DNA of 30,186 bases. Origin: Thermomicrobiales bacterium (lineage in GTDB: Bacteria; Chloroflexota; Chloroflexia; Thermomicrobiales; CFX8). The translations under genes were made by a program, and so were the position numbers. Positions 5,142-7,968 of this stretch are shown in pieces (position 1 is the first letter of the stretch; the number at the start of each line of letters is the position of its first letter). Where the stretch lies: the NCBI GenBank assembly GCA_035304105.1, contig DATGQR010000391.1, positions 1-30,186 of the forward strand, given 5' to 3'. The notes under the pieces were generated by a model. The model did not search any database. It worked only from the letters and a program-made list of their open reading frames with translations, and was not told where the DNA came from.

Positions 5142-6488
5142 TTAGCCGTCGAGATCGGCCGGGCGCTCGCCGAGGGTGACCTGGAAGGTCAGCGTCTCGC
5201 CGGTGCTCGGCCGGTAGACCTCGACGTCGATCGTGTCGCCCGGCGCGTACTGGAACAAGATCGTCTGCAGCGAGCGGTTCTGGGTGATCTCCTCGCCGTT
5301 CAGCTTGGTGATGATGTCGTCGACCTGGATGCCGCTGTTGGCGACCGGCCCGCCGGGTGTCATCTCCATGACGATCGCGCCATAGTCGATCGGCAGGTCT
5401 TCGGCAGCCGCCAGGCTGGGCGTCAGGATCTGGAACGTTATGCCCAGGAAGGGCCGCACCACCTGGCCGGTGTTGATGATCTGGTCGACGATGTCGCGCA
5501 CCGTGTTGCTGGGCACCGCGAAGGCCAGGCCTTCGGCCGTAATGCCGGTGCCGGCGTTGCGGATGACCGCCGTGTTGACGCCGACGACTTCGCCGCGCAT
5601 GTTCAGCAGCGGCCCGCCGGAGTTACCGGGGTTGATCGCCGCGTCGTGCTGGATCAAGTTATCAAGGTCGTCGAGTTGGCGGCCCAGACCCGAGATAACG
5701 CCAGTGGTGATCGTGTTGGTGTAGTCGCCCAGCGCGCTGCCAATCGCCACGATCGGCTCGCCGGGGCGCAGCGCGTCGGAGTCGCCCAGCGGCACGACGG
5801 CGGGCACCTCGGCGTCGACCTTGATGACCGCCAGGTCGGTGCGCGCGTCGGCGCCGACGAGCTGGCCGGTTACCGCCGTGCCGTCAGTGAAGATCACGCG
5901 CAGCTCGTCGCTGCCCTGGACGACGTGGTGGTTGGTGACGATGTAGCCGTCTTCGCTGATGATGAAGCCGGTGCCCGCGCCGGCCGGCACAATCTGATCG
6001 GCATCGCCGAAGAAGCCGCCGGCGAAGCGCTGCTCGTTGATGATCGTCACTACAGCCGGGCTGACCTGCTCGAAGATGTCGGCCGGAGTCGCATCGGTAC
6101 CCTGGTCGCTTGGCGCCGTCGGCTCGTCCTGCGCCGCCTCATCGCCCGTCTGGGCGACCGTCTGGGCCTCGTCGGCGGTGTCCGGGGCGGTCGTCGGCGT
6201 GGGCGCCGAGGTCTGCTCTCCGGTCGGGGTGGCGGTGGCGACGGCTCCGCTCCCGTTGTCATCTCCCTCGTTGAGCGCATAGCCGATCACGCCGCCGACG
6301 ACCCCGCCGCCGATCACCCCGAAGAACAGGACGACGACGGCGATCAGCGCGGCCAGGCGACGGCTGATTCCACCATCGCCGTTGCCGCCGTTATTGCGGC
6401 CAGCCGACGGTGGTTCGCTCGGAGGTTGTGGATACTGATAATAGGGGCGTGATGAAGAGGACCACTGCTGTCTGTCGCGATCGTACAT
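5142..6488 (-). CDS. htrA: HtrA/DegP-family S1C serine protease: N-terminal TM anchor, T/A/E-rich linker, one PDZ domain
   Basis: GTGFIISEDGYIVTNHHV, TDLAVIKV, DAAINPGNSGGPL, C-terminal PDZ (FLGI...GGP..DDII). Confidence 0.95.
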   Translation of the reverse strand: MYDRDRQQWSSSSRPYYQYPQPPSEPPSAGRNNGGNGDGGISRRLAALIAVVVLFFGVIGGGVVGGVIGYALNEGDDNGSGAVATATPTGEQTSAPTPTTAPDTADEAQTVAQTGDEAAQDEPTAPSDQGTDATPADIFEQVSPAVVTIINEQRFAGGFFGDADQIVPAGAGTGFIISEDGYIVTNHHVVQGSDELRVIFTDGTAVTGQLVGADARTDLAVIKVDAEVPAVVPLGDSDALRPGEPIVAIGSALGDYTNTITTGVISGLGRQLDDLDNLIQHDAAINPGNSGGPLLNMRGEVVGVNTAVIRNAGTGITAEGLAFAVPSNTVRDIVDQIINTGQVVRPFLGITFQILTPSLAAAEDLPIDYGAIVMEMTPGGPVANSGIQVDDIITKLNGEEITQNRSLQTILFQYAPGDTIDVEVYRPSTGETLTFQVTLGERPADLDG

Positions 6489-6529
6489 CCGTGTGCTTTT
6501 CCGTTCTGTGCCCGATGCCTGTCGATGTG

Positions 6530-6583
6530 ATTGTCGCGTGTCTGGCTGAACGCTACCTGAATCATGGCTGAATTCTGGCTAAA
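6530..6583 (-). promoter_or_regulatory. htrA promoter: four TT(C/T)AG(C/G) hexamers at 11-bp period, then N9-GACAAT
   Basis: Plus strand TGGCTGAA 6543, TACCTGAA 6554, TGGCTGAA 6565, TGGCTAAA 6576; exact 11-bp spacing is typical of OmpR/PhoB-family sites. Confidence 0.7.
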
Positions 6584-6639
6584 ACCCTACCGGAATTATG
6601 ACGAATCCGTAGCTCCGGCGGCTTGTTCTTGAGGCTTCA

Positions 6640-6856
6640 ATGACGCCGGCCGCCTCGTGCGATTCGAGGCGGCCGGAGAGTAAGGAGGGTGTGGGGGTGT
6701 GTTGTGGGCCGTTCCGGCCGGGGGAAGGCGGAACAGCTCCTCGCTCTTCTGGCGTGGAGAGTTCGCGTGCCGGGTCCCGGCCGTGGGCGGCGGGGGGGAC
6801 GCCGCCGGGGTGGTGTGCTCTGAGGCCCGGCGCGCGAAACGCCATCACGTTTTCTA
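6640..6856 (-). ncRNA. Candidate sRNA with C-rich loops and an anti-SD tract
   Basis: Loops UCCCCCC (stem 6786-6806) and UUCCCCC (stem 6708-6737), single-stranded CCCUCCUU (6689-6682), terminal 12-bp hairpin 6646-6676. Confidence 0.6.
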
Positions 6857-6862
6857 TGCTCT

Positions 6863-6916
6863 ATGATCGTGCCCCTAGCTGAACCGCGGGTTAAGTGTTC
6901 CTGAGAATAACCTGAA
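6863..6916 (-). promoter_or_regulatory. Second 4x11-bp direct-repeat promoter with the same orientation and spacing as the htrA one
   Basis: Minus strand TTCAGG-N5-CTCAGG-N5-TTAACC-N5-TTCAGC-N9-GATCAT. Confidence 0.65.
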
Positions 6917-6981
6917 ATCTCCGCGGCAGGCACAATTGCGCCGGCTGGTCGCGGGCCGGCTGTGGCCACGAAGGGGGCGCG

Positions 6982-7968
6982 GTGAGGCAAGCGCGTGGAA
7001 GAGCAGTGTTGGATAGAAGGCTGACCCGCCGGGCGTGGCTGGCGTTGCTCGCGGTCGCGGCGGCCGGCTGCGCCCGCAGCGAGGCCGGGACGCGCACGGC
7101 AGTCCCATTCGACCCGTCGGCGCTGACGCCCATCTATCCGGCTGGTGAGCAGCTGGTCGATCCCGATTGGCTGCGTGGGCGGCTGGACGACGCGAACCTG
7201 CGCCTCTTCGACCTCTCCGACCTGCCCGGCTACCGCGACGGCCACATCCCCGGCGCGGCCCACTTCTGGTGGCAGGACCTGATCGAGATCCACAACCCGG
7301 TCTACGGGATGCTGCTCGGCCCTGAGGGGCGCGCCCGGCTGATGCGCGACGCGGGCATCGAGCCGGACAGCACCCTCGTCTGCTATGACCGCTCCGGCGG
7401 CATCTACGCCAGCCGCCTGCTCTGGGTGCTGCGCTACATGGGCTTTCCCCGCGAGCGTGCCCACCTGCTGCTCGGCGGTCTCCAGGGCTGGGTCGAGACC
7501 GGCGGCGAACTCGAGCGCGACGCCCGCAGCTACGCGCCGGCCGCAACGCTCCTAGATGACGCCCGCGACGAGACGATCAACGCCAACGCGGCCGACATCC
7601 TCGCCCGCCTCGGCGAGCCGGGACTGGCGATCCTCGACACCCGCGCCGGGGCCGATCTGCGCGAGACCTGGCGCGGGCAGCTCCGCGAGGGCCGCATTCC
7701 TGGCAGCCTGCACCTGCCGCGTGACCAGTTTCTGCTGGACGGCCCGGCGCCGGCGCTTGTCTCCCCGGAGACGCTGACCGCTCGCCTGGCCGCGGCCGGC
7801 CTCGACCTCGCCGTGACCGACGAGATCATTGTCTACGACCTCCACGCCACGCTCGCCAGCCTCCCCTGGCTGGCCCTGACCGCCCTCGGCGGCCCCCATG
7901 TCCGCCTCTACGACGGCTGCTGGGCCGACTGGGGCAGCAACCACGAGCTGCCGCTGGAGGACCTCTAG
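6982..7968 (+). CDS. Tandem-domain rhodanese-like (sulfurtransferase-fold) protein, predicted Tat lipoprotein, canonical catalytic Cys absent
   Basis: TRRAWL twin-Arg and AAGC lipobox; YRDGHIPGA, GRIPGS and LYDGCWADW rhodanese signatures; active-site loop reads VYDLHATLA. Confidence 0.85.
   Translation: MRQARGRAVLDRRLTRRAWLALLAVAAAGCARSEAGTRTAVPFDPSALTPIYPAGEQLVDPDWLRGRLDDANLRLFDLSDLPGYRDGHIPGAAHFWWQDLIEIHNPVYGMLLGPEGRARLMRDAGIEPDSTLVCYDRSGGIYASRLLWVLRYMGFPRERAHLLLGGLQGWVETGGELERDARSYAPAATLLDDARDETINANAADILARLGEPGLAILDTRAGADLRETWRGQLREGRIPGSLHLPRDQFLLDGPAPALVSPETLTARLAAAGLDLAVTDEIIVYDLHATLASLPWLALTALGGPHVRLYDGCWADWGSNHELPLEDL

Follow-up and report, generated by a model that had tools for sequence, protein, structure and literature searches.

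A putative C-rich small RNA gene beside htrA in Thermomicrobiales, preceded by a promoter of the same build as that of the protease gene

The window, by which is meant the whole stretch of DNA analysed here (30,186 nucleotides), is contig C391 of a Thermomicrobiales MAG of 4.17 Mb in 660 contigs, with a completeness of 83.6%. The gene htrA was found on the minus strand at 5142-6488 and encodes an S1C serine protease with a PDZ domain and a long N-terminal region (Pfam Trypsin_2, 1.4e-36; PDZ_2, 1.2e-14). Divergent from htrA, on the plus strand at 6982-7968, lies a gene for a tandem-rhodanese lipoprotein (Pfam Rhodanese, 5.6e-23, in two stretches), whose product has a lipobox-like signal peptide as read from the sequence. 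The true start of the rhodanese gene is probably a later GTG or TTG near 7006. This divergent arrangement is maintained throughout the family and was used as the synteny anchor. The candidate RNA gene described here sits inside the 493-nt divergent intergenic region between the two genes. In the genus that carries the RNA this region measures 400-490 nt, compared to about 170 nt in most other genera.

Both the candidate RNA gene and htrA are preceded by an array of four hexamers on the minus strand. The boxes of the RNA promoter, at 6879-6917, are TTTCAG (6917-6912), TCTCAG (6906-6901), CTTAAC (6895-6890) and GTTCAG (6884-6879). A predicted -10 hexamer, GATCAT, which is CATCAT in most relatives, was found at 6863-6868, exactly 10 nt after the last box. 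The htrA promoter lies within 6530-6584 and consists of TTTTAG (6584-6579), ATTCAG (6573-6568), ATTCAG (6562-6557) and GTTCAG (6551-6546), with the -10 hexamer GACAAT (6535-6530) likewise placed 10 nt after the last box. Four hexamers with the consensus tTTCAG, a period of 11 nt and a distance of 10 nt to a -10-like hexamer were observed at both promoters in all ten homologs described below. The -10-like hexamers were CATCAT, GATCAT or CATACT for the RNA, and GACAAT, CAGACT and variants of these for htrA. In every homolog the RNA promoter could be written as TTCAG-N10-(C/G)AT(C/A)(A/C)T. A promoter PWM was built from the 20 promoters (RNA and htrA of the ten homologs) and used to scan the 4.17-Mb assembly. 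The RNA promoter was the best site with 65.3 bits and the htrA promoter reached 64.5 bits; the next site scored 15.5 bits, and no third promoter of this kind was found in the genome as assembled.

By their conserved direct repeats at an 11-nt period, the RNA and htrA promoters would both be of the OmpR/PhoB type, and we infer that a shared response regulator of this type drives the RNA together with htrA. The genome encodes 19 OmpR-type regulators, none of which lies in the window. The recognition helices closest to that of CiaR were found in the regulators at C568 and C592, which is a lead only. A preliminary description of this DNA had assigned htrA and the small RNA to one response regulator. 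The identical four-box build of the two promoters, the sole two sites of this kind in the assembled genome, agrees with that assignment, while the dependence on a regulator is read from the promoters themselves.

When the 20 genomes of the family were searched for three phased TTCAG boxes, exact or nearly so, the matches were almost specific to htrA promoters, and a reversed control pattern gave zero to one match per genome. Outside the genus carrying the RNA, htrA is run from one array only, in intergenic regions of the short type. The family-wide presence of phased TTCAG arrays at htrA suggests that the link between the regulator and htrA is old and that the RNA was added later, within one genus. 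In genus g7 (L099 and L115) a four-box TTCAG array was found in front of another gene, which encodes a protein of about 380-430 aa that is seemingly membrane-bound and is not HtrA. This suggests that the regulon has other members in other genera.

The 15.5-bit site from the PWM scan lies at C593, in a locus with a PepSY gene and a regulator-kinase pair. It was rejected as a member of the regulon, its hexamers (CTTCAT, CTTTAT) being different, and is probably the autoregulated site of that locus's own regulator. At C593:3080-3240 (L125) the PepSY gene is divergent from the response regulator and histidine kinase genes. Both divergent promoters read CTTCAT-N5-CTTTAT followed after 10 nt by a -10-like hexamer, which is the geometry of the htrA boxes with other hexamers.

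The predicted RNA is about 213 nt long and extends over 6644-6856 on the minus strand. Its 5' end was placed about 7 nt after the -10 hexamer and its 3' end 2 nt past the terminal stem; counted from the -10 hexamer, the homologs are 210-234 nt long. The 5' domain (6750-6844) is made up of a closing helix and a long helix (6844-6823 with 6781-6750), which bears the apical hairpin P3 at 6806-6786 (GGCGGCG, 6806-6800; loop UCCCCCC, 6799-6793; CGCCGCC, 6792-6786). Hairpin P4 follows at 6708-6737 with the C-rich loop UUCCCCC at 6726-6720. The pyrimidine-rich linker (6677-6707) contains an exposed CCCCC at 6697-6693 and the anti-SD motif CCUCCU at 6688-6683. The RNA ends with P5 (6646-6676), a terminal GC hairpin of 12 bp in which 6676-6665 pairs with 6657-6646 around a loop at 6664-6658. 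P5 is presumed to be the transcription terminator of the RNA. No clear U tract was found after P5 (a terminator scan returned nothing, the T run being missing), so the hairpin does not have the form of an intrinsic terminator; the tails past P5 in relatives are weakly U-rich.

The six-C hairpin P3, hairpin P4, the C-rich tract and the terminal 12-bp stem of the preliminary description were all found again on the minus strand at the positions given there. The tract had been described as unpaired and as ending in an anti-SD. Both the tract and CCUCCU are present and the runs of at least four C stay free, whereas the anti-SD end is predicted to pair with GAGGA (6742-6738) in the MFE structure as well as in the centroid structure. 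This GAGGA/anti-SD helix is absent from relatives.

A BLASTN search with the intergenic region against 40 relatives gave a single match, 43 nt within the promoter, and homologs were therefore sought by synteny and with a covariance model. In four genomes of the genus the shared layout was recognized by eye and then aligned. A covariance model, R1, was built from the 3' 120 nt of the RNA and scored 92-108 bits on these four genomes. When R1 was applied to loci fetched through relatives of HtrA, the module was found in seven more contigs with 35-92 bits. The total came to 10 distinct Thermomicrobiales sequences (genomes or contigs) and one near-identical strain. Every homolog is located on the htrA strand and upstream of htrA, where the preliminary description had proposed to look for homologs, and helices P4 and P5 covary among them. 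A metagenome scan with HtrA returned the same organism and distant relatives only, and the extra homologs came from look-ups of exact proteins.

A strict pattern of the promoter and 5' end was searched against 185,579 species genomes, and the matches were two known members of the genus only. Across the family R1 gave weaker matches of 17-32 bits at other loci and no convincing copy in other genera. These weaker matches were ruled out as the same gene since none of them has TTCAG boxes. R1 also gave no match at 2461-2690 of the window, so that by this criterion the stretch holds no paralog of the RNA. The restriction of the pattern to two genomes, together with the lack of a convincing R1 copy elsewhere, indicates that the gene is confined to one small uncultured clade. 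The sequencing runs that contain the sequence include compost, manure and soil metagenomes and metatranscriptomes; among the compost metatranscriptomes with the locus are X15, X16, X35 and X36.

Relationships to known RNA families were studied with Rfam. Nothing in the whole window reached the gathering score, and a search of 6350-7100 with E values up to 10 resulted in two chance-level matches, PreQ1-III (14.9 bits) and atpB (12.7 bits). The comparison with the 6C, csRNA and cuckoo models suggested in the preliminary description thus gave no family match. In the literature searched, no regulatory small RNA from Thermomicrobiales and no small RNA with C-rich seeds from Chloroflexota was found.

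The region was found to fold more stably than expected from its composition. The minus strand of a 241-nt stretch had a fold z of -4.53 against dinucleotide shuffles, with none of 200 shuffles as good, and the 3' 120 nt of the RNA alone had a fold z of -4.74. In the 11-row alignment of the 3' module, whose rows are mutually related and were fitted to the covariance model, so that pair counts lean towards structure, compensatory changes were seen in 16 of the 21 pairs of P4 and P5 (8 of 11 in P4 and 8 of the 10 modelled pairs in P5), with 92.5% of the cells paired in both helices together and 98% in P5. None of 500 column shuffles matched this alignment on any of five measures, and sliding the partners by 1-3 columns as a control reduced pairing to 23-50%. 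An independent MAFFT/RNAalifold analysis of four sequences already gave compensatory changes in 9 of the 21 pairs.

A common layout was seen in all homologs: a 5' domain, P4, a G-poor linker of about 21-29 nt and a terminal hairpin of 12-16 bp. The conserved 5' end, which reads GCGAUGCG in most homologs, pairs with the segment directly before P4 and thereby closes the 5' domain. This closed topology was found in 9 of the 10 homologs, though the sequences of the long helix have been swapped between species. The fold z of the 5' domain was -2.1 to -5.5 in eight of the ten, the domains of L086 and L084 being no better than shuffles, and in an alignment of six sequences compensatory changes were present in 8 of 25 predicted pairs.

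Three to seven runs of at least four C were counted per homolog. They occupy conserved positions in the P3 loop region, in the P4 loop and along the linker, and were on average unpaired with a probability of 0.92, compared to 0.39 for the remaining RNA. The P4 loop had a run of at least five C in 10/10 homologs (five here, 5-8 in relatives), with an unpaired probability of about 0.94-1.0. The P3 loop has six C here, and a C-loop at this place is kept in about seven of the ten homologs. In the four genus genomes the linker contains little G and much C, and its C content is similarly high in the other homologs. An exact CCUCC anti-SD was found in six of the ten homologs, and the remaining ones carry tracts of the CCCCUU(U)CC type. 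Loss of the C-loops and of the anti-SD in relatives had been named beforehand as evidence against the proposal; the C-runs were retained in every homolog, whereas the exact anti-SD was restricted to the six. No CAU was seen at a consistent position across the homolog sequences.

Taken with the promoters, these results make it very probable that the locus holds a real, conserved RNA gene under a regulator-type promoter shared with htrA. An OmpR/PhoB-type regulator would bind the four tTTCAG hexamers and activate the RNA promoter, and the same regulator would activate htrA about 330 nt downstream through the equivalent array. A single envelope or secretion-stress signal could in this way induce a trans-acting RNA along with a protease for quality control. 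Through its three or four exposed C-runs the RNA would bind mRNAs at G-rich ribosome-binding regions and reduce the translation of these mRNAs. The trans-acting reading of the C-runs is drawn from analogy with the csRNAs (PMC3091779) and 6C RNA (PMC6486639), and the full mechanism, with these runs as seeds, is at most somewhat probable. The pairing of the C-runs would probably be Hfq-free. An Hfq gene was not found in the 83.6%-complete MAG.

Similar regulatory logic is known from Proteobacteria, where the inducer of DegP/HtrA also induces an RNA that curbs the synthesis of envelope proteins, as with MicA, RybB and MicL under sigma-E and CpxQ under Cpx. The likeness to these RNAs is one of analogy only; they are Hfq-dependent and have unrelated seeds and promoters, whereas no Hfq was found here. 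RsaE/RoxS of Firmicutes and the CcsR 'cuckoo' RNAs of Alphaproteobacteria, which are made under the control of stress regulators, also expose several C-rich motifs for pairing with ribosome-binding sites. The present RNA had no Rfam match to these families and differs from them in structure, regulator and genomic context.

The closest parallel in promoter design is offered by the csRNAs of Streptococcus. Promoters of CiaR-dependent csRNAs consist of TTTAAG-N5-TTTAAG with 10 nt to the -10 hexamer and an invariant final G (PMC3091779). The arrangement of hexamer-N5-hexamer ending 10 nt before the -10 hexamer was found in 10/10 homologs, with TTTCAG instead of TTTAAG and with four boxes instead of two (PMC3091779). 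Further common features are an OmpR-type regulator for htrA and a small RNA, which is deduced here from the promoters, and an intergenic gene that ends in a hairpin and has an unpaired pyrimidine-rich stretch between stem-loops (PMC3091779). The differences are considerable. No similarity in sequence, Rfam family or model was found, and the host belongs to the Chloroflexota (Thermomicrobiales). There is one copy per genome compared to two to six csRNA genes, and the RNA is longer (about 213 nt), with an extra closed 5' domain and without a U-tailed terminator. Its C-runs are placed in loops, whereas csRNAs carry a conserved anti-SD plus an anti-AUG.

The C-runs are more reminiscent of 6C RNA from Actinobacteria, in which C-run hairpin loops are the seeds for G-rich mRNA sites (PMC6486639). 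High-GC hosts, C-run hairpin loops and an apparent independence of an RNA chaperone are common to both RNAs (PMC6486639). The RNA described here differs by the absence of an Rfam match, by being about twice as long, by its closed 5' domain and long C-rich linker, by the regulator-type promoter that ties it to the neighbouring htrA and by its phylum. The RNA is a new family with its own architecture, an analogue and not a member of 6C, csRNA or cuckoo. The earlier label of a csRNA/6C-like system fits the promoter geometry and the exposed C-runs and does not extend to an Rfam relationship or to the exact anti-SD, which is predicted to be paired and occurs in six of the ten homologs. A csRNA-like mechanism would, by this analogy, be plausible.

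Transcription of the region was studied in assembled metatranscriptome contigs. In sample X35 the stretch 6300-6527, comprising the start of htrA and a leader of about 39 nt, was covered at a depth of 11, and this contig ended close to the predicted htrA start. A second contig ran at a depth of 5.3 from 6644 to beyond 7200; it covers the RNA region, crosses the RNA's own promoter and continues into the rhodanese gene. Its end at 6644 is 2 nt past P5 and fits the predicted 3' end of the RNA. Neither simple carry-over of DNA nor read-through into htrA would readily account for the gap at 6528-6643 in this sample. The contigs are unstranded, and they are compatible with the predicted discrete minus-strand RNA. 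In X19, a soil metatranscriptome, a contig was found at 6428-6628; its upstream edge lies about 100 nt beyond the predicted htrA start and 16 nt short of the RNA 3' end.

An explanation without trans targets would be a cis-acting leader, in which the upstream array is a distal second promoter of htrA and P5 an attenuator that tunes htrA. The location of the RNA directly upstream of htrA on the same strand fits such a leader, as does the missing U tract after P5, which makes read-through plausible, and the X19 contig does extend upstream of the proximal htrA promoter. A leader is difficult to reconcile with the coverage gap in X35 between the RNA and htrA and with the complete second promoter that lies between them. 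The spacer from P5 to the htrA boxes varies in sequence and in length (about 55 nt at the shortest, over 200 nt at the longest), and other genera drive htrA with a single array in their intergenic regions of about 170 nt. Conserved exposed C-runs, moreover, have no obvious role in cis. The cis-acting leader was therefore judged unlikely, and a discrete RNA acting in trans is the preferred reading.

Candidate targets of such an RNA were sought by complementarity. In a blastn-short search the RNA linker proved perfectly complementary over 15 nt to a G-rich 20-mer, which belongs to the leader of a gene for a 156-aa protein. Rhodanese leaders were also rich in G, with 40-48% G in most species compared to 23-33% in htrA leaders. 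For three leaders, the G-rich one of the 156-aa protein gene and those of the rhodanese gene and htrA, the duplex energies with the RNA did not improve on those of composition-matched shuffles. When the RNAs of other species were paired with the G-rich 20-mer, the pairing was no better than with shuffled sequence.

Two observations were made along with this search. The P4 loop and its flanks have a 16-nt perfect complement in the ribosome-binding region of a gene for a LigD primase-polymerase (C8:379-405, L124), a match that may be due to chance (blastn-short E 0.005, one strand). The G-rich 20-mer, GAGGGTGTGGGGGTGGAGAG, is located at 925-944 of C327 (region 880-1010, L123). It is single-copy and 100% conserved in the four genus genomes, the orthologous places being L127, L128 and L129. 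It lies between a conserved TATACT promoter and a strong, terminator-like hairpin, which in three species has a U7 tail. The 156-aa protein encoded after it has no Pfam match, and the element has no Rfam match. Possible roles of the 20-mer are those of an attenuator, of a G-quadruplex or of a pairing partner of C-rich RNAs.

The RNA could also act in trans as a sponge or decoy, with C-loops that bind a protein recognizing C-rich RNA or that titrate a G-rich RNA, for which the conserved G-rich leader would be an example. Each molecule exposes three or more C-motifs of a similar kind, which is reminiscent of multi-site sponges, and the conserved single-copy 20-mer does have its 15-nt perfect complement in the linker. 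In most species, though, the G-rich leader was no more complementary to the RNA than shuffled G-rich sequence, there is no known candidate for a protein partner, and the C-rich seeds of 6C RNA act on mRNAs (PMC6486639). A sponge is for these reasons distinctly unlikely. Quite improbable, too, is a variant in which the RNA is the effector of a minimal two-promoter regulon that arose independently of CiaR and the csRNAs, and in which a C-motif may pair with the G-rich 20-mer and so switch attenuation instead of blocking a ribosome-binding site. Pairing of the C-runs with ribosome-binding regions is the reading retained here.

The strand of the functional transcript was addressed by comparing the pairs formed in the modelled helices. 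G-U pairs can form on the htrA strand only and A-C cells would be their equivalent on the opposite strand only, and the count of 16 G-U cells to 4 A-C cells favours the htrA strand. A natural variant at 6790, present in two samples, changes a G-C pair of P3 to G-U on the minus strand only. At 6790-6792, metagenome and metatranscriptome contigs showed strain-level variation, consisting of a C-run one base shorter and a plus-strand G-to-A change.

A functional transcript on the other strand would be a long, G-rich 5' UTR of the rhodanese gene that starts near 6644 and opens with the hairpin. The X35 contig, unbroken from 6644 into the rhodanese gene, is in line with this, the plus strand of the 241-nt stretch also folds well (fold z of -3.87), and the complement of the RNA -10 hexamer, TATGAT, could be a plus-strand promoter element. 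Yet the G-U to A-C ratio points to the minus strand, and the block outside the terminal hairpin, the site for any such plus-strand promoter, is unconserved. The best-conserved block of the region is instead the minus-strand promoter, with a geometry equal to that of htrA. In X17 the rhodanese contig begins at 6938 and the RNA region is missing, and no plus-strand ORF is conserved. A plus-strand UTR as the functional transcript is accordingly very unlikely, and the minus-strand RNA is preferred.

Coding of a small protein, for example from the plus-strand GTG at 6690 or an 89-aa minus-strand ORF, was rejected on both strands as extremely improbable: open frames do exist on both strands and AAGGAGG precedes plus-strand GTG codons, but open frames are expected anyway in DNA of 67% GC, no ORF on either strand is conserved across the homologs (position and length vary in every one, and L092 lacks a sense-strand ORF altogether), the frame of tblastx matches changes from one part of the alignment to the next, and indels of 1, 2, 4 and 5 nt separate close relatives, with a 2-nt indel between two near-identical strains.

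The locus is a candidate backed by comparative genomics, with a readable circuit in which one regulator would serve two promoters, that of a protease and that of an RNA. If the proposed reading is true, the CiaR logic of htrA and csRNAs, including the spacing of the promoter, would be present in an unrelated phylum and would represent convergent wiring of the envelope stress response. The distribution is narrow, being limited to a single uncultured genus of compost and soil. The locus provides a defined DNA motif and an RNA model which can be used to find the cognate two-component system and the targets.

Other C-rich elements were encountered in the family. At L041:1501-1635 and L045:1501-1638 (genus g5), at L040:1501-1603 (G001) and at L055, a hairpin with a CUCCCCCG-type loop is followed by a tract rich in C and U and then by a GC hairpin that has a U-rich tail. 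These loci have no TTCAG boxes, and one of them is the 3' end of a small ORF. They may be further C-rich RNAs or 3'-UTR elements.
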